Shown: piece after piece, positions 9,935 to 23,525 of the stretch
How the letters are laid out: the number at the start of each line of letters is the position of its first letter
Numbering within the stretch: the first letter of the stretch is position 1
The notes under the pieces: generated by a model
What the model was told of the DNA's origin: nothing
The model's input: the letters and a program-made list of their open reading frames with translations, nothing else
Database searches by the model: none
Virus record (IMG/VR): IMGVR_UViG_2526164619_000010
Span: 1-23,525 of that record
Length of the DNA stretch: 23,525 nucleotides
Direction: 5' to 3' (one strand)
DNA from: a virus
Taxonomy: Duplodnaviria; Heunggongvirae; Uroviricota; Caudoviricetes
Position numbers and translations under genes: made by a program

Positions 9935-11243
9935 GAGAGGCGGGCTGGACCAGCCTGTTTCAGGCGGTGGCTGAGCCCTTTTCCGGCGCCTGGCAGCAGG
10001 GCGTGAAAGCCGATCCGGAAGCCGTCCTCTCCTTTCATGCGGTGTTTTAGTGCATTTCGCTGATATCCCAGGATATCGCCAAAATGCGGCTGCGTCTTAT
10101 GCAGACGGATGCGCAGGGGATACGCAGGGAAACTCGCCGGGGGGATATTGCCCGCCTCTGTCGTCGTCCCAACGCCCAGCAGAACCGCATCCAGTTTTTT
10201 GAACTGTGGCTGAACGCCAAACTGCGTCACGGCAATACGGTGGTGCTGAAAATCCGTAACTCCCGGGGGCAGATCAAAGAACTGCGCATTCTGGACTGGA
10301 GCCGGGTTGAACCACTGGTGGCGGATGACGGCGAAGTGTTCTACCGCATCACGCCGGATCGGAACTGCGGGATCACTGAGGCGGTGACGGTGCCTGCCCG
10401 GGAAGTGATCCACGACCGGTTTAACTGTTTTTTCATCCGCTTATAGGGTTGCCGCCGGTGTATGCCGCCGGGCTGGCCGCCACGCAGGGGCATCATATTC
10501 AGGAAAATTCGACGTATTTTTTCAGAAATGGCGGCATGCCGTCCGGGGTGATTGAGATCCCCGGCAGTATTACGGAAGAAAATGCGAAAAAACTGAAGAG
10601 CAACTGGGACAGCGGGTATACCGGCGAAAATGCGGGGAAAACGGCCATTCTGAGCAACGGGGCAAAATACAACCCCACGACGTTTTCACCGGTGGATGCG
10701 CAGACGGTGGAACAACTGAAGATGACCGCTGAAATTGTCTGTTCGGTGTTCCGTGTCTCGGCCTACAAGATTGGCGTGGGACAACCGCCTTCCAGTGACA
10801 ACGTGGAGGCGCTGGAGCAGCAGTATTATTCCCAGTGCCTGCAGACGCTGATTGAGTCCATTGAACTGTTACTGGATGAGGCGCTGGAAACGGGGGAAAA
10901 CGAGAGTACAGAATTTGATGTCACCACGCTGCTGAGAATGGACAGTGAGCGGCGCATGAAAACGCTGGGGGATGCGGTGAAAAATACGCTTCTCACGCCC
11001 AATGAGGCCCGTAAACGGGAGAACCTGCCGCCCCTGGCCGGCGGTGATGCACTGTATCTTCAGCAGCAGAACTACAGTCTGGAGGCACTGTCCCGTCGTG
11101 ATGCCCGTGAGGATCCGTTCGCGTCGACCGGGAAAACGGCCTTAGCGCAACCGCCTGACGGCGCATCTGACGGTAATAAGGCAATCAGTGAAACAGAGCA
11201 TGATGCGGTGAAAGCGATGTTCAGGGGAATTCTGAAAAAATGA
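9880..11243 (+). pseudogene. portal protein (HK97 family) inactivated by an in-frame TAG (10048-10050) and a 1-bp deletion in a T-run (10428-10433)
   Basis: Three pieces: 9880-10050 (ATG with GGAG 10 bp upstream), 10051-10446 in the same frame after the TAG, and 10449-11243 in another frame. Piece 3 carries the portal signature ...FFRNGGMPSGVIEIPG...GENAGKTAILSNGAKY...DAQTVEQLKMTAEIVCSVF...EFDVTTLLRMDSERR...LTPNEARKRENLPPLAGGD. Confidence 0.8.
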
Positions 11244-12301
11244 ATGAACGTGAACTGTCCATTATTCGTGCCCTGGGAGAAGAATTCGCCACGGTGCTGG
11301 CGGATTTACAGCGCACATTTGAGGAGAAGATGAGCGCGCAGGCACAAGCGTTTGAAGAGAAACTGGCTTCCCTGTCCGCTCTGTTACAGAAGCATGTGAC
11401 GGTGGATGAGGTTAGCCCTGTTCTGCAGGCGATGGTGGATGACGCAGTGGGGGCCATTCCGCTACCGCGTGATGGTCGCGATTATGATCCGGAAGTACTG
11501 AAGCAGGCGGTGAATGATGCGGTCGCGAAAATACCGGTGCCGGCAGACGGCAAAAGTATCACCCCCGATGATGTGCGTCCGATGCTTGAGCAGATGGTGA
11601 AAGAGGCTGTAAGCCATATTCCTGTTCCGCGTGATGGTCGTGACTACGATCCGGAAGTACTGAAGCAGGTGGTGAATGATGCGGTCGCAAATATTCCGCA
11701 GCCGGCGGACGGTAAAGGTCTCACCCCGGATGATGTGCGTCCGATGCTTGAACAGATGGTGACGGAGGCTGTAAGCCATATCCCTGTTCCGCGTGATGGT
11801 CGTGACTACGATCCGGATGTTCTGCAGAAGGCGGTTCTGGATGCGGTGAGTGCCCTGCCGGCTTCGCAGGACGGGCGTGATGCCACGGCTCTGGAAATAC
11901 TCCCCGCCATTGACGTTCAAAAATCCTTTCCCCGGGGCACGTATGCCACACACCAGGGCGGACTCTGGCGGGCGTATGAAAAAACGCACGGGATGCGGGG
12001 ATGGGAATGCCTGGTTGACGGGGTGGCGGATATTGACGTCAGCATGACGGGTGAGCGGTTGTTCTCTGTGGTGGTCCGGCAGAGCAGTGGCCAGCGTACG
12101 GAAAAAACATTTTCCCTGCCGGTGATGCTCTACCGCGGTGTGTTCAGAGCCGGTGAAACCTACCACCCCGGCGATATGGTGACGTGGGGGGGCTCGCTGT
12201 GGCACTGCAACAGTATGACCGAAGATAAACCCGGAGAAGCTCATTCATCAGCCTGGACCCTGGCTGCAAAACGTGGGCGGGATGCAGGAGGCGGAAAATG
12301 A
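11240..12301 (+). CDS. head-module protein of unknown function containing ~2.6 tandem 54-aa repeats
   Basis: 353-aa ORF translationally coupled to portal (ATGA at 11240-11243) and to the connector gene (ATGA at 12298-12301). Repeat unit IPVPRDGRDYDPEVLKQAVNDAVAKIPVPADGKSITPDDVRPMLEQMVKEAVSH. No family recognised. Confidence 0.6.
   Translation: MNERELSIIRALGEEFATVLADLQRTFEEKMSAQAQAFEEKLASLSALLQKHVTVDEVSPVLQAMVDDAVGAIPLPRDGRDYDPEVLKQAVNDAVAKIPVPADGKSITPDDVRPMLEQMVKEAVSHIPVPRDGRDYDPEVLKQVVNDAVANIPQPADGKGLTPDDVRPMLEQMVTEAVSHIPVPRDGRDYDPDVLQKAVLDAVSALPASQDGRDATALEILPAIDVQKSFPRGTYATHQGGLWRAYEKTHGMRGWECLVDGVADIDVSMTGERLFSVVVRQSSGQRTEKTFSLPVMLYRGVFRAGETYHPGDMVTWGGSLWHCNSMTEDKPGEAHSSAWTLAAKRGRDAGGGK
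11456..11880 (+). repeat. in-frame tandem repeat, 162-bp unit, ~2.6 copies (copies start 11456, 11618, 11780)
   Basis: Direct comparison of the three units shows high nucleotide identity with mostly synonymous or conservative differences; the third copy diverges after ~100 bp. Confidence 0.85.
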
Positions 12302-14563: not shown

Positions 14564-14824
14564 ATGAAAAAGGATCTGAAAACGCTGGCGCTGGCCAGAC
14601 TGTCAGGGTTTCGTCATAAAACGGTGAAGGTGCCGGAATGGGGGAATGTCAGCGTGGTGCTGCGGGAGCCTTCGGCAGAGGCCTGGTATCTGTGGCAGGA
14701 AGTGCTCAATGGTGATGGAGAGGATGACGATACCCTGTCGGTGGTGGCGAAAACCCGCCGTAACCTGGAAGCGGATGTGACGCTGTTCTGCGATGTCCGT
14801 AAGCTTCCGGGGAACTCATATTGA
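14564..14824 (+). CDS. tail assembly chaperone (gpG-like)
   Basis: 86-aa ORF MKKDLKTLALARLSGFRHKTVKVPEWGNVSVVLREPSAEAWYLWQEVLNGDGEDDD... acidic small protein between major tail and tape-measure genes. A +1-frame ORF (14793-15002) continues past its stop and may be the T-like extension. Confidence 0.6.
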   Translation: MKKDLKTLALARLSGFRHKTVKVPEWGNVSVVLREPSAEAWYLWQEVLNGDGEDDDTLSVVAKTRRNLEADVTLFCDVRKLPGNSY

Positions 14825-15158
14825 CGCGTTTTTCAGGCGCGCGTCATCGGCGGCGCATACGAACGCTCGTGGTTTGATAACGGTTGATTTATTTTGTTGC
14901 ACAGAGACGATCGCCAGGCAGGTACCGGAGGCGGGCTCTGAAGTACTGAGTAGCGTGATCGCGTCAGGCCGCGAAGTACTGACTCGGATTAATTGCAGGT
15001 GATGATGTACTGACCCGGGAATGACTCCGGGCTGATTCAGGTTCTTATTCGCTGTCAGCCCGCGTGGTTGCTGGTCTGGCTCATTTCCTGCCGTCAGGAG
15101 TTCAACTCCCGACTGCAGGTTATGGCCCGGTGCACGAACACCTGACGGCAGGTATCAC

Positions 15159-16759
15159 TCACCCGGAGAAGGTAAATCCCTCAAGAGGCAGCAACTCTGC
15201 CAGTCGCTCCTCCGGCCACTCCGGCAGACGCATCAGGACGTCTGTCAACCAGGCATGCGGCTCCAGACCGTTGCGTTTCGCGGTTTCCAGCAAGCTCATT
15301 ATTTGCGCGGCGCGTTCTCCCGCCATCTGCGAACCGGCGAACAGCCACGATTTTCTGCCCAGAACCACGTTTTTGATGGCCCGTTCACACACATTATTAT
15401 CCAGCGGCACCGCACCATCTTCCAGGAAGCGGCTCAGTTCCACGCGATGAGACAGCGCATAGGCAATGGCTTTGTGTAATGCCTTTCCCGGAGAACATTG
15501 CGGTTCCTGCTCTTCAAGCCATGACCACAGTTCTTCCAGTATCGGACGGGCATAACGCTGTCGCCACTGGCGGATTTTTTCCACGGGGCGGCTACTGATC
15601 TTCTTCTCAAGACGGTACAACCCCGCGATTTTCTTCACGGCTATGGCAGCCCGTGGATCTTTACTGATTTTATACAGGTCGGCGAAGCCCCTGCGGGCAT
15701 GGGCCCAGCATCCGGCCAGCGTGATCTCCGGCACTTTGTTTGCCAGAGTCCGGTAAGCTTTATGTCCGTCGACAACCAGCGTCCCGCCCCAGCCCTGAAG
15801 CCAGTTTTCAGGATACTCATGGCTACGTCCGGTCCGGCAGTCGAAGCACACAACTGACGGTCCCGTCCTTTCTCCACTGACGTATGCCCACAGATAACCG
15901 GAGCAGGATTTACCGCCTTTCTTCGTGTTCAGGATCTTCAGGGTAGTCTCATCTGCATGCACCACCGGACGGTTTATCAACTCGCGATGGAGTAACGCCG
16001 CCAGGGGAGATAATTCGGCACCCGCCGCGCCAACCATGTCAGCCATCGAACTGACGGGCAGCCCGACATCTGAACGGGCAAAGACCTGTTGCTGGCGATA
16101 CAGAGGCAGGTGGTCACCGTATTTATTGATGATCACCTGTGCGATGACTGATGGCTCAACGGCACTTTTCGGGAGGATATGTGCCGGCATTTCACCGCTG
16201 AACACCTTCTGACAACAGGGACAACTGTATTGCGGACGGACATAACGGTTCACCACAAAGTGAGCGGGAATATACTCCAGCTTTTCACTCACCGCATCGC
16301 GGATATAGTGCAGCGGCTCGTCACATTCAGGGCAATGGTCAGTGTCCGGCTGGATAATTTTTTCCACCCGTGGAAGATGAACCGGTAAGGGTTTGCGTAT
16401 CGGGCGTGAACGGGACGCTTTTTCATCTTCTTCAGGGGATTGCGGGAGCAGTTTATCCAGATGTGCGGTAAGCGCGGCGATATCGGCATCAACATCCTCT
16501 TCGAATAGGGAGCGTTGCATACCAGCCAGCGTTTCACATTTTTTCCGAAGCGCTGTTGACGAACCAGTTTCAGCATTTCTTCCAGAAGCTGGATGCGCCG
16601 GCTTTTCTCCAGTAATTCCCGCTCTTTTTCGGCATTCTCCGACATGACTTCTTGTACCATGGCAAGTGCCATAGCACGCAGTTTTTCGATGTCATTCGTG
16701 GTGTTGAGAGCGGAGATATCCATACAGGGGAGTATATCACTCCAGATACGGATATTCAT
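15159..16759 (-). pseudogene. IS66-family transposase TnpC, frameshifted by a 1-bp deletion in an A-run (plus-strand T-run 16539-16544)
   Basis: N-terminal leucine-zipper part ...LLEKSRRIQLLEEMLKLVRQQRFGK (from 16759 or 16723) is in one frame; the remaining 453 codons (15159-16520, with CxxC...CxxC zinc motif and DDE-type core) are in another. Restoring one A gives a continuous ...RFGKKCETLAGMQRSLFEE... reading. Confidence 0.75.
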
Positions 16760-16765
16760 TATTTT

Positions 16766-17158
16766 TCACTGAGTTAGCAGTGTATTTTGCGTGTTTTCAG
16801 GGCGCAGTTCAGGTTCATTCTGCCAGACCCATTTCGTCAGGTCATGTCCCTTAACCTGCTGCCAGTCAACACCGGCAATCAGCCAGTTAAACTCGTCGGG
16901 AGTGAGGTGCCAGGCAGCGTCATTTGCACGTGGCCAGCGGAAGCTGCCTTTGTGCAGACGGCGGGTACACAACCACACCCCGTGTTTATCCCACCGGAGA
17001 ACTTTGATACGCGAACGGGCTTTGTTAACAAAGACGAAGGCGGCTCCCTCATGCCATGTCGACCGGAGTTCATCCTGTATATACTGCATCAGTGAGTCGA
17101 TGCCCCGGCGCATGTCAACAGGTTTAATTGCGATGAAGACATTATCAGGACTGAGCAT
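16766..17158 (-). CDS. IS66-family TnpB (orf2)
   Basis: About 130 aa from ATG 17158 (MLSPDNVFIAIKPVDMRRGIDSLMQYIQDEL...VLRWDKHGVWLCTRRLHKGSFRWPR...), typical IS66 Orf2; start overlaps tnpA stop. Confidence 0.8.
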   Translation of the reverse strand: MLSPDNVFIAIKPVDMRRGIDSLMQYIQDELRSTWHEGAAFVFVNKARSRIKVLRWDKHGVWLCTRRLHKGSFRWPRANDAAWHLTPDEFNWLIAGVDWQQVKGHDLTKWVWQNEPELRPENTQNTLLTQ

Positions 17159-17474
17159 ATTTGAGTGCCCTGAAGACATCGGTAAGTTGTGACGGCTGAC
17201 AGCACATCCGTACTCCACCGGGAAGGAAGAGCGTGACTGGCTCATTCGTGACGGGCTGTGGTACATCAGCATGCAGTGGTGGCGCAATATGAACGGGAAG
17301 AACGGTCGGTTCATTTGCCCGGCGTTCAGCTTTTGCGACATCCTGCGGCCATTCGCGAAGTGATGTGAAGGGAATATCGTTGAGTTCATAGTATTGCTGA
17401 CGTGTAAGACCACTGGCGCGCCAGGCAGCAACGTGCTGCCTTTTCTGTTCAATGGTCCATCGGGGTTTTGACAT
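17145..17474 (-). CDS. IS66-family TnpA (orf1)
   Basis: 109-aa ORF MSKPRWTIEQKRQHVAAWRASGLTRQQYYELNDIPFTSLREWPQD... first gene of the IS66 operon. Confidence 0.8.
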   Translation of the reverse strand: MSKPRWTIEQKRQHVAAWRASGLTRQQYYELNDIPFTSLREWPQDVAKAERRANEPTVLPVHIAPPLHADVPQPVTNEPVTLFLPGGVRMCCQPSQLTDVFRALKYAQS

Positions 17475-17617
17475 CGATTATCTCCGGTAAGTTGGTGAAT
17501 GGATGTCGGTAATACTAACTGACCGAAGATCCCTGTGAAGATGACTTCCCCGTAACGACACTCAAAATTTCGGCAAATTCACAGTCATTCCAGTCGGAGA
17601 TCCAGCGGGCGTCCCGT

Positions 17618-20600
17618 ATGGGCAGTGAATATTACCGGACCCTGCAGAATGGCGGACGTCATGCCGCTGCTGCCGCACGGGAACAGCGCCGCGCCCTTGC
17701 AGAACTGAACAGTCAGTTGACGGAAATTCGCGGTTCTGCTGTCGGAATGGCTGGCGCATTTGCCGGTGCCTTTGCCACCGGACACCTGATTTCGCTGGCC
17801 GATGAGTGGGGTTCCGTGAATGCCCGTCTGAAACAGGCATCTCAGTCATCGGATGAATTCTCGTCATCACAGAAAGTGCTGATGGATATCAGTCAGCGAA
17901 CAGGTACCGCGTTTTCGGATAATGCGGCCCTGTTTGCCCGTTCGGCTGCCTCGATGCGTGAATATGGTTACAGTGCTGATGATGTGCTGAAGGTGACGGA
18001 GGCCATTTCGACAGGACTGAAACTGTCAGGGGCTGGAGTTGCGGAATCCGGTTCGGTGATCACCCAGTTCAGCCAGGCACTGGCACAGGGTATACTGCGT
18101 GGCGAAGAATTTAATGCTGTTAACGAAAATGGCGACCGGGTGATCCGCGCGCTTGCTGCGGGGATGGGTGTGGCCCGTAAAGATCTGAAGGCAATGGCGG
18201 ATGACGGAAAACTGACAGCGGATAAAGTGGTCCCTGCGTTAATCAGCCAGCTGGGGATATTACGTGATGAATATGCGGCCATGCCGGAAACGGTTTCCGG
18301 TAGTAACACGAAGGTGGAAAACGCCTTTATGGCCTGGGTGGGCGGAGTGAATGAGGCCTGCGGGGTGACAAAAACGCTCTCCGGTGTGCTGAACGGTGTT
18401 GCCGGACAGATTGATAATGTGGCAACAGCTGTGGGGGCGCTGGTTGCCGTCGGGGTTGCCCGGTACTTTGGCAATATGGCCTCCGGAGCGATGTCTGCCA
18501 CGGCAGGACTTGTGACGGCTGCACGTAATGAAGTTGCACTGGCGGAAGCACAGTTCAGGGGAACGCAGATTGCCACGGCGCGGGCAAGGGCAGCCGTGTA
18601 CCGTGCTCAGCAGGCCGTGGCGGCAGCCCGCGGGACGGAGATGCAGATTGCTGCAGAGGCCCGTCTGGCGGCCACACAGGAACGCCTGAACAGAAATATT
18701 GCTGCCAGAAGCGCCGCCCAGAATGCGCTGAACAGTACAACGGCGGTGGGCTCACGTCTGATGAGCGGTGCGCTGGGGCTGGTTGGTGGCGTACCCGGAC
18801 TGGTGATGCTGGGGGCTGCAGCATGGTACACGCTGTACCAGAATCAGGAGCAGGCCAGGGAGTCTGCGCGCCAGTATGCACTGACGATAGATGAAATCGC
18901 GCATAAAACGCCGTCAATGTCTTTGCCTGAAGCCTCAGATAATGAAGGACGAACACGGGCGGCGCTGACAGAGCAGAACCGGCTGATTGATGAACAGGCT
19001 AGTCGGGTGAAATCCCTGCAGGAAAAAATCGCAGGATATCAGTATGTTCTGGCGAACCCGGGCTGGACGACCGGTGACGGATTCATGATAAACCATCTGA
19101 CCTCGGTGAAGACCGTAACGGAAGGGCTTGCTCAGGCAACAGAGCAGCTTGCCGTTGAGCAGTCCCGTCTGGCACTGATGCAGGAAAAAGCGCAGTCCAT
19201 TCAGGATGTGCTTGCCGGGCTGGAAGACCGTCGTGTGGCGTTAATTCGTCAGCAGGCGGCAGAGCAGAATAAGGTGTACCAGTCCATGCTGGTTATGAAC
19301 GGTCAGCATACGGAATTCAACCGTCTGCTGGGGCTGGGTAATGAACTGCTTCAGCAGCGGCAGGGACTGGTGAATGTGCCGTTACGGCTGCCACAGGCCA
19401 CTCTGGATGATAAACAGCAGAGTGCCCTGACAAAAACAGAGCGTGAGCTGGCCCTGTCCAGACTGAAAGGGGAAGAAAAAGAGCGTGTCCGACTGGGGTA
19501 TGCGGCGGATGACCTCGGTTTTGTGGGTGATCCGTATCAGGAGGCGAGACAACGTTATATCAGTAATGCCCTGGAAGCCTGGCGCAATAACGAGGCGAAT
19601 AAACCCAAATCCCGGGGTGGAAAATCAGAGACGGAAAAAGCGGAAGACAGTTTTTCCCGGCTGCTGAAGCAGCAGAAAGAGCAACTGGCACTGGCGGGGC
19701 AGAATACAGAGCTGGCGAAGCTGAAATACCAGACTGCGCAGGGCGAACTGAAAACCCTGACGGAGATGCAGAAGCAGGAACTGCTGCGCAATGCGGCCCT
19801 GATTGACCAGCAAAAAATCCGGGAGCAGTTGCGGTCCCGGGAAGAGACCCTGAAGAATGATAATGTGGCTGCGCGTGCATCAAATGAAGCGGAACTGCTG
19901 GGGTACGGGCAGGGAGAGCGGCTCCGTGAACGCATGCGGGAGTTGCAGCAGATCCGCGACAGTTTCCGCCAGAAGGATGCGGACCTTCAGTCTCAGTATC
20001 AGACCGGGGATATCAGTGAGGATTTTTACAGACAGGCTCTGGCATAGAACGCGCAGTATCTGAGTGAACGTCTGAAAGAGCAGGAAGCCTTTTATGCCGA
20101 ATCGGATGTGCAGCGTGCGGACTGGCAGAAAGGGCTGCAGGAGGGATTCAGTAACTGGGTGGATAATGCGTCCGATTACGCCTCACAGGCAGCACAGCTT
20201 GCGACGGAGGGTATCTCAGGGATGGTGAATAACATCACGGAGATGCTGAACGGAAATAAAGTGGAATGGCGCAGCTGGGCCTCATCAGTGCTGCAGGAAA
20301 TATCAAAAGTTCTTATGAATGCCGCGATTGTCAACGGGATCAAGACGGCGGCAAACAGTATGTCCGGAGCGGGAGGATTTATCGGCAGTATTGGTAGCTG
20401 GCTGGGCGGTGCGGTGGCCAATGCAAAAGGCGGTGTGTATACCTCGGCAAACCTGAGTGCGTACAGCAACAGTATTGTGGATACGCCCACGTACTTTGCC
20501 TTTGCAAAAGGGGCGGGACTGATGGGGGAGGCCGGTCCTGAAGCCATTATGCCCCTGACCCGGGCGGCGGATGGCTCGCTGGGTGTGCGAGCGGTGGGCA

Positions 20601-20779
20601 GTATGAACGGCAGTGCAGGTCTGGTGTATTCCCCGGTCTACCATATCGCCATTCAGAATGACGGGACTAATGGCCAGATAGGGCCGGAAGCTGCGGGCAG
20701 CCTTGTGCAACTGATTGACCAGCGGGTGCAGGCGGTGATGCTGTCCATGCGACGTGACGGAGGAATGCTGAGTGGCTGA
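17618..20779 (+). pseudogene. tail tape measure protein (lambda gpH-like C-terminus) interrupted by an in-frame TAG at 20045-20047
   Basis: 809-codon ORF 17618-20047 and 223-codon ORF 20108-20779 are in the same frame, separated only by the amber codon (...RQALA*NAQYLSERLKEQ...). C-terminal part ...VYHIAIQNDGTNGQIGPEAAGSLVQLIDQRVQAVMLSMRRDGGMLSG matches the lambda H C-terminus. Confidence 0.8.
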
Positions 20780-21113
20780 GATAAAAACGCTGCATCTGGT
20801 CCCGCGTGAAGGGATGCAGGTGAGTGAGAAACCGTCGGTGGCGAGGGTACGGTTTGGTGACGGTTATGAACAGCGCCGCCCGACGGGACTTAATGCCCGA
20901 CTGAAGACGTTTCAGGCGGTGTTCCGGGTGACGGATGAGGCGACCCGGCGATGGCTGGAAGAGTTTTTATCGTGGCATGGTGGTTACCGTGCCTTTTTGT
21001 GGCGACCGCCGAAACATAACCGGACGGTGAGGGTGGTATGCCGGGAGTGGAGCGTCACAGATAACGCCAGGTACAGTGATTTCAGTTGTACGATTGAGCA
21101 GGTGGTGAACTGA
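20772..21113 (+). CDS. M: minor tail protein M
   Basis: 113-aa ORF, GTG start overlapping the tape-measure stop; ...VARVRFGDGYEQRRPTGLNARLKTFQAVF...HGGYRAFLWRPP...FSCTIEQVVN parallels lambda gpM. Confidence 0.85.
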   Translation: MAEIKTLHLVPREGMQVSEKPSVARVRFGDGYEQRRPTGLNARLKTFQAVFRVTDEATRRWLEEFLSWHGGYRAFLWRPPKHNRTVRVVCREWSVTDNARYSDFSCTIEQVVN

Positions 21114-21811
21114 TGCAGGATATTCGCGAAGAAAGGCTGAACGAGTCGGTTAAGTCAGAGCAGTCACCGCGGGTGGTACTCTGGGAAATCGACCTGACGG
21201 TACAGGGTGGTGAGCGGTATTTTTTCTGTAATGAGCTGAATGAAAAAGGGGAGCCGGTCACCTGGCAGGGGCGTAAGTATGAGGCATACCCGATTGACGG
21301 CAGCGGCTTTGAGATGAACGGCCGGGGCAGCAGTGCCAGACCGTCGCTGACGGTGTCCAATCTGTTCGGTCTGGTCACCGGGATGGCGGAAGACCTGCAG
21401 AGTCTGGTGGGGGCCACGGTGGTCCGCCGCCGGGTGTATGCCCGTTTTCTGGATGCGGTGAATTTCGTTGCGGGCAATCCGGAGGCGGACCCGGAGCAGG
21501 AGCTGAGTGACCGCTGGGTGGTGGAGCAGATGTCGCAGCTGACAGCCATGACGGCCTCGTTTGTGCTGGCTACACCGACCGAGACGGACGGGGCGCTGTT
21601 TCCCGGTCGTATCATGCTGGCGAACACCTGTATGTGGACCTACCGCTCTGATGAGTGTGGTTACACGGGCGGGGCTGTGGCGGATGAGTTCGATAAACCC
21701 ACCACGGATATCCGTAAGGACAGATGCAGCAAGTGCATGCGCGGGTGTGAACTGCGCAGGAATGTCGGCAATTTTGGCGGTTTCCTTTCCATTAATAAAC
21801 TTTCGCAGTAA
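21113..21811 (+). CDS. L: minor tail protein L
   Basis: 232-aa ORF MQDIREERLNESVKSEQSPRVVLWEIDLTVQGGERYFFCNELNEKGEPVTWQGRKYEAYPIDGSGFE...NVGNFGGFLSINKLSQ, near-collinear with lambda gpL including the cysteine cluster; TGATG overlap with M. Confidence 0.9.
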   Translation: MQDIREERLNESVKSEQSPRVVLWEIDLTVQGGERYFFCNELNEKGEPVTWQGRKYEAYPIDGSGFEMNGRGSSARPSLTVSNLFGLVTGMAEDLQSLVGATVVRRRVYARFLDAVNFVAGNPEADPEQELSDRWVVEQMSQLTAMTASFVLATPTETDGALFPGRIMLANTCMWTYRSDECGYTGGAVADEFDKPTTDIRKDRCSKCMRGCELRRNVGNFGGFLSINKLSQ

Positions 21812-21821
21812 ATCCCGGTTT

Positions 21822-22565
21822 ATGACACAGACTGAATCAGCGATTCTGGCGCATGCCCGGCGGTGTGCGCCTGCGGAGTCGTGCGGCTTCGTGATAAGCA
21901 CGCCGGAGGGGGAGCGGTATATCCCTTGTGTGAATATTTCTGCAGAGCCGGAGGCGTATTTTCGTATCGCACCGGAAGACTGGCTGCGGGCAGAGATGCA
22001 GGGGGAGATTGTGGCACTGGTCCACAGTCATCCCGGTGAGCTGCCCTGGCTGAGCGAGGCTGACCGGCGGCTGCAGATAAAAAGCGCACTGCCCTGGTGG
22101 CTGGTCTGCCGGGGGGAAATTCATAAATTCCGCTGTGTGCCACATCTGACAGGACGGCGCTTTGAGCACGGGGTGACGGACTGTTACACGCTGTTCCGGG
22201 ATGCATACCATCTGGCGGGAATTGATATGCCGGATTTTCATCGCGAGGATGACTGGTGGCGCAACGGCCAGAACCTGTACCTGGACAATATGGCGGTCAC
22301 CGGCTTTTACCGGGTGCCCCTGTCCTCTGCACAGCCGGGCGATATCCTGCTGTGCTGCTTCGGCGCATCGGTGGCTAATCATGCCGCCATTTACTGTGGC
22401 AACGGTGAACTGCTTCACCATATTCCTGAACAACTGAGTAAACGGGAGAGGTATTCCGAAAAATGGCAACGACGAACGCATTCTGTCTGGCGTCACCGCC
22501 ACTGGCACACATCTGCCTTCACGGGGATTTACAACGATTTGGCCGCCGCCTCAGCCTGTATGTGA
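21822..22565 (+). CDS. K: tail assembly protein K (JAB/MPN-like HSHP motif plus NlpC/P60-like C-terminal part)
   Basis: 247-aa ORF from ATG 21822 (track ORF starts further upstream at 21561): MTQTESAILAHARRCAPAESCGFV...EIVALVHSHPGELPWLSEADRR...GVTDCYTLFRDAYHLAGIDMPDFHR..., as in lambda gpK. Confidence 0.9.
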   Translation: MTQTESAILAHARRCAPAESCGFVISTPEGERYIPCVNISAEPEAYFRIAPEDWLRAEMQGEIVALVHSHPGELPWLSEADRRLQIKSALPWWLVCRGEIHKFRCVPHLTGRRFEHGVTDCYTLFRDAYHLAGIDMPDFHREDDWWRNGQNLYLDNMAVTGFYRVPLSSAQPGDILLCCFGASVANHAAIYCGNGELLHHIPEQLSKRERYSEKWQRRTHSVWRHRHWHTSAFTGIYNDLAAASACM

Positions 22566-23139
22566 ACACGGCAGCGGAAGCCATTCGCGCCCTGTCGATG
22601 CAGATGCCGGGCTTTCGCCTTCAGATGAACGAAGGCTGGTACCAGATACGTATTGCCGGTGAAAACACGGCACCGGAGGTGGTGTACGCCCGCCTTCACG
22701 AACAGCTGGGTGAGGGAACGGTCATCCACATTGTGCCGCGACTGGCCGGGGCCGGAAAGGGTGGACTGCAGATTGTGTTGGGGGCGGCAGCCATCGTGGG
22801 CTCTTTCTTCACTGCCGGGGCATCAATGGCGTTATGGGGTTCAGCCCTGGCAGCCGGTGGTTTTTCTGCCACCACGATGCTGTTTTCACCTGGAGCCAGC
22901 ATCTGGGCGGTGTGGCCCAGATGCTGGCCCCGAAGGCAAAAACACCGGATTACCGCGCAACGGATAACGGCAGACAGAACACGTACTTTTCCTCGCTGGA
23001 TAACATGATTGCCCAGGGGAACCCGATGCCGGTGCCTTACGGGGAAATGCTGGTTGGCTCCCGTCGTATATCCCAGGACATCAGCACCCGTGATGAAGGC
23101 GGGGGCGGAAAGGTCGTGGTTATCGGGCGACAGGGATAA
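22463..23139 (+). pseudogene. I: tail assembly protein I, frameshifted by a 1-bp deletion near 22890-22900 (start codon uncertain)
   Basis: N-terminal part (22463-23008 frame, ...LHGDLQRFGRRLSLYVNTAAEAIRALSMQMPGF...IHIVPRLAGAGKGG...) and C-terminal part (22834-23139 frame, ...GGVAQMLAPKAKTPDYRATDNGRQNTYFSSLDNMIAQGNPMPVPYGEMLVGSRRISQ...) both resemble lambda gpI but sit in different frames. Confidence 0.75.
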
Positions 23140-23310
23140 AACATAAAAAAATCCCGCAGTGATCGCGGAGCTGCGGGGACAGACAAAGATTAGAGTTAAG
23201 GAGTTGTTTTTGTTACCCGGGCAAAAAAACACTAACGCAGAGAAATTATAAGCGCCACAGTCAGTGTGTGAAAATGTGAAGATATTCAGAAATTTTATTC
23301 CGTCATGACG

Positions 23311-23342
23311 CAGGCACCCGGTGAGGTGCCTGTTGTTTTTGT
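23311..23342 (+). terminator. intrinsic-terminator-like hairpin plus T-rich tract just upstream of J
   Basis: CAGGCACC-CGGTGA-GGTGCCTG stem-loop (23311-23332) followed by TTGTTTTTGTG. Confidence 0.35.
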
Positions 23343-23375
23343 GAGTGAACAATTATCACGGTAAGAGGTGATGTA

Positions 23376-23525
23376 ATGGGCAAAGGTGGCGGCAGGGCGC
23401 ACACACCGCGTGAGGCGAAAGACAATCTCAAATCCACGCAGATGATGAGCGTGATTGATGCGATTGGTGAGGGACCGATAGAAGGCCCGGTGAAAGGCCT
23501 GCAGAGTATTCTGGTGAACAAAACC
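23376..23525 (+). CDS. J: host specificity / central tail fibre protein J, N-terminal 50 codons (continues beyond window)
   Basis: MGKGGGRAHTPREAKDNLKSTQMMSVIDAIGEGPIEGPVKGLQSILVNKT is nearly identical in pattern to the lambda gpJ N-terminus; RBS AAGAGGTGA upstream. Confidence 0.88.
   Translation, partial: MGKGGGRAHTPREAKDNLKSTQMMSVIDAIGEGPIEGPVKGLQSILVNKT

Follow-up and report, generated by a model that had tools for sequence, protein, structure and literature searches.

Why does the tape measure gene of a prophage carry a single in-frame amber codon, and what does this codon do? The question is raised by the window, which is the whole stretch of 23,525 bases analysed here. An earlier note, made from the sequence alone, had regarded decay of the gene as the simplest reading. 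It had also considered that this amber, together with another in the portal gene, might form a conditional block that is lifted in a host carrying an amber suppressor. The answer depends on the ancestral state of the codon, on the reproducibility of the stop, and on what else has happened to the gene and to the element around it.

The tape measure frame

Translation of positions 17618–20779 (1054 codons) contains a single internal stop, the TAG at 20045–20047, after which the reading continues in an unchanged frame (...YRQALA*NAQYLSERLKEQEAFYAESDVQRADWQ...). The description of this codon as the sole interruption is thus borne out. In the list of open reading frames, the two parts of 809 aa (17618–20047) and 223 aa (20108–20779) share one frame. 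The assignment to the tape measure family also holds, on the basis of homologues and of matches to NCBIfam profiles. TIGR02675 (tape_meas_nterm) matches the 809-aa part with E=7e-20, and TIGR01541 (tape_meas_lam_C) straddles the stop, with profile positions 2–121 before it and 144–332 after it. Both domains of a lambda-like, gpH-type tape measure, the N-terminal and the lambda-type C-terminal one, are therefore present. An uninterrupted frame with its own start downstream of the chaperones G and G-T is absent from the window. The region 17562–20779 is a pseudogene of the gpH-type family and not a functional member of it. The features of the locus and of the remaining element are collected in Table 1.

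The ATG at 17618 is an internal methionine, codon 28 of the intact gene. Homology to tape measure genes starts at 17562 (codon 9), directly after the end of an IS66 element; consequently, the native start codon is gone. Further upstream, the frame crosses the IS end (…EDDFPVTT/LKISANS…, with the slash at the junction) and runs back to a TAA at 17516–17518. No ATG, GTG or TTG occurs in frame between this stop and the methionine at 17618. The length of about 1053 aa given in the earlier note for the uninterrupted gene needs correction, since relatives encode 1080 aa and the supposed start is internal. That reading of the locus was right about the TAG and about decay, but it overlooked the IS element directly upstream of the gene.

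Table 1. Features and lesions of the prophage remnant, with positions in the window
Feature	Position	Strand	Evidence
IS1 between chromosomal drpB/yedR (1–384, minus) and the prophage late region	502..1269	+	
IS600 (IS3 family) in place of the lysis cassette	about 3670..4953	-	NCBIfam IS3 transposase; 99.2% identity to annotated IS600
Large terminase opal TGA; Arg in relatives, CGA in L001 (C-to-T) and AGA in L003	7217..7219	+	Confirmed in L027
Large terminase, 19-bp frameshifting deletion	7400..7401	+	Confirmed in L027
Portal amber TAG from TCG (Ser), C-to-A transversion; TCG or TCT in relatives	10048..10050	+	Confirmed in L027 and L028
Portal T-run, T6 against T7 in all relatives, frameshift	10421..10427	+	L027 and L028 have T7
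Truncated tail assembly chaperone G, first 78 of 124 codons	14564..14798	+	Comparison with relatives
ISEc49-like IS66-family IS, 2763 bp, at nt 26–33 of the tape measure gene	14799..17561	-	NCBIfam matches to IS66 transposase and TnpB
Tape measure remnant of a lambda-like tail, codons 9–1080 of 1080, without native start	17562..20779	+	tblastn and alignment to the intact genes of L001, JLK-2012 and Lys8385Vzw; NCBIfam domains
Amber TAG from CAG (Gln, codon 837), C-to-T transition	20045..20047	+	Alignment; sister assemblies
Tail assembly gene I (gpI), 4-bp frameshifting deletion	22902..22903	+	Confirmed in L016 and L018

Source strain and reproducibility of the amber codon

The window corresponds to the last 23,525 bases of AKMY01000042.1, a contig of assembly GCA_000268165.1 of Shigella flexneri K-315. 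The assembly is given under this strain name in a published strain table (PMC6397287). An exact search with the 809-aa product led to this one contig, and the product is deposited as EIQ21544.1, 'tape measure domain protein [Shigella flexneri K-315]'. Every one of the four K-315 contigs with this block has the TAG, and so do three further assemblies (GCA_049894805.1, GCA_026022055.1 and Logan ERR6006273). Because these three independent assemblies of the same lineage carry it, the TAG is not a sequencing error. A sense codon, the outcome of resequencing that had been named as a refutation, appeared in none of them.

In draft assemblies, a block flanked by an IS can turn up at the ends of more than one contig, and the K-315 assembly contains such a case. 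The block from the left end of IS66 to the start of J (window 14799–23525) recurs at the ends of K-315 contigs 6, 42 and 71, and contig 38 overlaps it (contigs 38, 6 and 71 are L005, L006 and L008). Each of these contig ends has a left flank of its own: the truncated G in the window, a tail_T gene from a different prophage in the second, and a DUF6531/Rhs-like gene in the third. Identity between the copies is 99.9%, and their differences lie mostly inside the IS and at 17914–18306. Either the assembler placed one repeat several times, or the block truly exists in multiple copies. Since it is repeated at contig ends of a draft, its copy number and long-range linkage are not fully certain.

Ancestral state of codon 837

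Over positions 17618–20779, the window is 95.7–98.9% identical at the nucleotide level to tape measure genes of E. coli lambdoid prophages and Stx-converting phages. Searches located the stretch in 1992 complete-genome records of E. coli and in 105 phage records, and annotated relatives contain one unbroken CDS of 3243 nt (1080 aa). The closest E. coli prophage relative, L001 (E. coli O157:H16, NZ_CP062876.1), is 98.9% identical over the tape measure. Together with gene H of JLK-2012 and with BP-4795, it covers the identity range given above over the whole 3162 bases, and the tape measure of Lys8385Vzw shows about 94% nucleotide identity. The window and these lambdoid relatives share the downstream genes M, L, K, I and J as well as both tape measure domains. 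Three differences separate them: in the window the IS66 end takes the place of the start and first eight codons, TAG stands at codon 837 where the relatives have CAG, and upstream of the tape measure the chaperone G is truncated and T is deleted.

The site reads GCA CAG AAC in L001 and in phage JLK-2012 and GCA TAG AAC in the window, and the complete S. flexneri genomes examined also have CAG at codon 837. Alignment to intact homologues, the check suggested for the ancestral codon, thus identifies CAG (Gln837) and a C-to-T change. An 83-mer centred on the TAG was compared with 2881 places in complete E. coli genomes and with 92 in phage records; none matched it exactly, and the nearest were one base off. 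A TAG-bearing 34-mer likewise had no exact match in a species-representative genome collection. Because the homologues have CAG within one continuous gene of 1080 aa, both a natural gene boundary and a conserved readthrough are ruled out, and the assumption of a single ancestral gene is upheld.

The IS66 insertion and the adjacent deletion

Both ends of the IS66 element are set by independent annotated copies of the ISEc49 family, which are 99.3–99.5% identical to it; the element measures 2763 bp in the window and 2766 bp elsewhere. The same IS is present as a simple insertion in four complete S. flexneri chromosomes and in two drafts, one of which is K-1770. In this layout, the 2766-bp IS stands between nt 1–33 of the gene and the remainder, which resumes at nt 26, and an 8-bp duplication (TCAAAATT) lies on both sides of the IS. 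These genomes have intact G and T upstream and CAG at codon 837. A probe of the junction (17300–17800) was spanned by no record of the complete E. coli genomes, and the junction between the IS and the tape measure consequently appears to be Shigella-specific in the data searched.

At the left end of the IS, the window lacks 525 bp, namely the left duplication, the first 25 nt of the gene, all of T, and G from codon 79 onward. The resulting junction of truncated G and IS66 is also found in other assemblies of the K-315 lineage, among them GCA_049894805.1 and several Logan assemblies. The arrangement of the window equals the ancestral S. flexneri order minus these 525 bp and is therefore credible; it is a simple adjacent deletion. 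A chimeric assembly of head genes, IS66 and tape measure was considered, as three K-315 contigs that differ in their left flanks lead into this one block. It is no more than a caveat, since the same G lies 525 bp upstream of the same IS in complete S. flexneri.

Comparison with the other Shigella loci (CP162059, CP055124 and K-1770) shows both likeness and difference. Their right junction is identical to that of the window, and the same tail block follows at 99.2% identity. However, these loci keep G, T and the first 33 nt of the gene 5' of the IS, together with CAG at codon 837, and the window does not. They have lost their head genes by an IS1-bounded deletion, whereas K-315 keeps damaged head genes. 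The locus in the window is the IS66-interrupted allele of Shigella to which one deletion and one nonsense codon have been added. The expansion of IS elements and the degradation of the genome are known features of Shigella (PMC7373316).

The IS itself is also altered. The transposase frame is broken in the window (15159–16730, minus strand), with 453 aa against 533 aa in complete S. flexneri. Among the K-315 copies of the IS, 1-bp indels occur at 15668, 16358 and 16538, and these differences may be consensus noise from a multi-copy IS.

Other lesions of the element

Damage to the remaining element was assessed by comparison with the intact phage Lys8385Vzw and with L001. The second amber mentioned in the earlier note is real: the portal gene has TAG at a position where relatives have a serine codon. 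Sister assemblies confirm this codon, the opal codon and the 19-bp deletion in the large terminase gene, and the deletion in gpI. The only exception is the change in the portal T-run, where the draft probably has a homopolymer error or K-315 a change of its own.

In total, the element contains three nonsense codons, at least three confirmed indels and three IS elements, a variety of inactivating lesions that corresponds to a cryptic prophage. Essential modules are missing as well, namely the lysis cassette and, within the window, the early region. About 6.4 kb of L001 (2932–9365), comprising the rest of the esterase gene, holin, lysozyme, antirepressor, Rz and others, have no counterpart in the window at the search threshold. 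Between drpB/IS1 and the late genes, the window contains no early region, and the far side of the prophage is beyond the contig end.

Private lesions and the order of events

Samples that share the IS junction outside the K-315 lineage have CAG at codon 837 along with other private lesions. Consequently, the IS insertion came first, and the amber codon arose later and is lineage-specific. In L009, the tape measure gene has deletions of 157, 42 and 1 bp. L011 (Logan ERR5984630) has an independent CAG-to-TAG change at codon 572 and a 1-bp deletion, which indicates that amber codons arise repeatedly in the frame beheaded by the IS. A 4-bp insertion is found in L010 and a 1-bp deletion in L012; the contigs of both start inside the gene, with the junction out of view. 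Private secondary lesions on a shared IS66 junction, as expected for a cryptic prophage, are thus present.

The private substitutions within the clade amount to two or three synonymous against about eight non-synonymous and two nonsense changes, by a rough count in a small sample. As far as such a sample allows, they fit the absence of selection, as expected. The frame behind the IS is otherwise clean in the window, being free of indels and of further stops over its 1072 codons. Elsewhere, about 250 contigs from S. flexneri, S. dysenteriae and others have an IS-fused open frame of 1086 aa. The clean and widely open frame could reflect residual selection. However, divergence within the clade is about 0.3%, and about 3% of random substitutions create stops. 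Because divergence is low and few substitutions make stops, an open frame behind the IS is expected by chance.

The 1086-aa frame is annotated as 'phage tail tape measure protein', and its first 14 residues (MTEDPCEDDFPVTT) come from the IS66 end (P0003, P0005, P0006; L020–L025). The annotated frame starts with a CTG right after the TAA. The 1086-aa 'tape measure protein' of many Shigella genomes is the IS-fused pseudogene frame and not an intact gene.

Interpretation and alternative explanations

The amber codon is best explained, with a probability of about 0.93, as a late and inconsequential nonsense mutation in a tape measure pseudogene, which belongs to a defective lambdoid prophage remnant of S. 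flexneri K-315. An ISEc49-like IS66 element entered nt 26–33 of the gene in an ancestor common to many Shigella strains and detached the body of the gene from its ribosome-binding site and start codon. In the K-315 lineage, the 525 bp at the left end of the IS were then lost, and with them the first 25 nt of the gene, T and the 3' part of G. The C-to-T change at 20045 followed, while other private lesions appeared in sister lineages; that the frame was by then evolving neutrally is inferred. Within the window, the element has separately lost the large terminase, the portal, gpI, the lysis cassette and the early region. No phage or tail can be made, regardless of whether the ambers are read through. 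Decay, already regarded as the simplest reading, is therefore strongly supported by the IS66 insertion, the 525-bp deletion and the non-amber lesions. Nothing here departs from the known decay of prophages in Shigella. The locus is a classic example of how a prophage decays step by step in a pathogen that is rich in IS elements and whose genome is degrading, and it has little biological weight. In practical terms, regulated readthrough of an in-frame stop should be invoked only after the stop has been weighed against sister genomes and against everything else that is broken in the element.

A conditional block, in which a suppressor of the glnV/supE type reads through the portal and tape measure ambers and restores a functional phage, is almost certainly not the explanation. 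Both ambers are real. A change from a glutamine codon to TAG is of the kind for which supE gives an exact repair, and as the tape measure amber derives from CAG, a suppressor that inserts glutamine would bring back the original residue there. The portal amber, however, replaces serine and not glutamine. The tape measure lacks its start and first eight codons, T and the 3' part of G are deleted, the large terminase gene is hit by an opal codon as well as a 19-bp deletion, gpI lacks 4 bp, and the lysis genes and early region are absent from the window. Because these non-amber lesions affect the terminase, gpI, G/T, lysis and early functions, a suppressor could not rescue the element and would at most extend the translation of a fragment without a proper start. 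A tRNA scan of the window found no tRNA gene of any kind and hence no phage-borne suppressor, and a search of one literature collection for natural amber suppressors and prophages gave no paper. The occurrence of two ambers is itself no signal. Among single-base changes that create stops in the morphogenesis genes of an intact relative, 47–59% give TAG, as CAG and similar codons are common, and by chance two or more of three nonsense codons would be TAG with a probability of 0.46–0.63. Laboratory amber (sus) mutants propagated on supE or supF hosts resemble the window in having an in-frame TAG in essential morphogenesis genes. They are otherwise intact, whereas in the window not all lesions are amber: the element also has opal, frameshift, deletion and IS lesions (terL, gpI, IS66 with the 525-bp deletion, IS600) and missing modules. 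The suggestion of a suppressor-dependent block is thus not supported.

The remaining alternatives are improbable as well. A natural feature of the phage group, either two adjacent genes or a programmed TAG readthrough or recoding, has next to no probability. The shared frame alone speaks for it; none of the 14 intact window genes checked ends with TAG, but this codon is a rare terminator in E. coli in any case. Against it, every homologue examined has a continuous gene with CAG. The stop is not conserved in functional relatives, and TAGs do not recur across genes: the morphogenesis genes hold just two in frame, replacing glutamine and serine, and the window encodes no suppressor tRNA. A sequencing or assembly error that hides a sense codon is very improbable. 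K-315 is a draft, and the T-run frameshift at 10427, absent from sister assemblies, resembles a homopolymer error; the TAG, however, is a substitution and not a homopolymer indel, and it is identical in four K-315 contigs and three independent assemblies. It is also very unlikely that the IS-fused or truncated product (809 aa here, 1086 aa elsewhere) was co-opted, being expressed and kept for a host function. The 1086-codon frame open on about 250 Shigella contigs is in keeping with co-option. Against it, no canonical start precedes 17618, as a CTG directly follows the TAA, strains break the frame at different places, the substitutions look unconstrained, and low divergence accounts for the open frames. 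Equally improbable is that the tail block 3' of IS66 is kept by selection, for example through an IS-borne promoter, with the K-315 amber as a recent loss or a suppressor-dependent variant. The late nonsense mutation in a pseudogene remains the preferred explanation.

Additional observations

The left end of the window has the order drpB/yedR, IS1, a nanS-like esterase gene and IS600. The esterase gene is 84% identical to its E. coli relative over the 5' 435 nt, which is the sole matching part. The tail-only remnant of other S. flexneri adjoins pocR/cobS via IS1. In L001 (NZ_CP062876.1, 10472–12133 and 14345–16929), an internal stop in the large terminase gene and a frameshifted portal gene are annotated, and these lesions differ from those of the window. 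The open reading frame after the portal gene (11240–12301, 353 aa) contains a tandem repeat with units of about 54 aa (…IPVPRDGRDYDPEVLKQ…). Among relatives, the length of this frame changes in steps of 162 bp and 324 bp, which corresponds to a repeat-number polymorphism.
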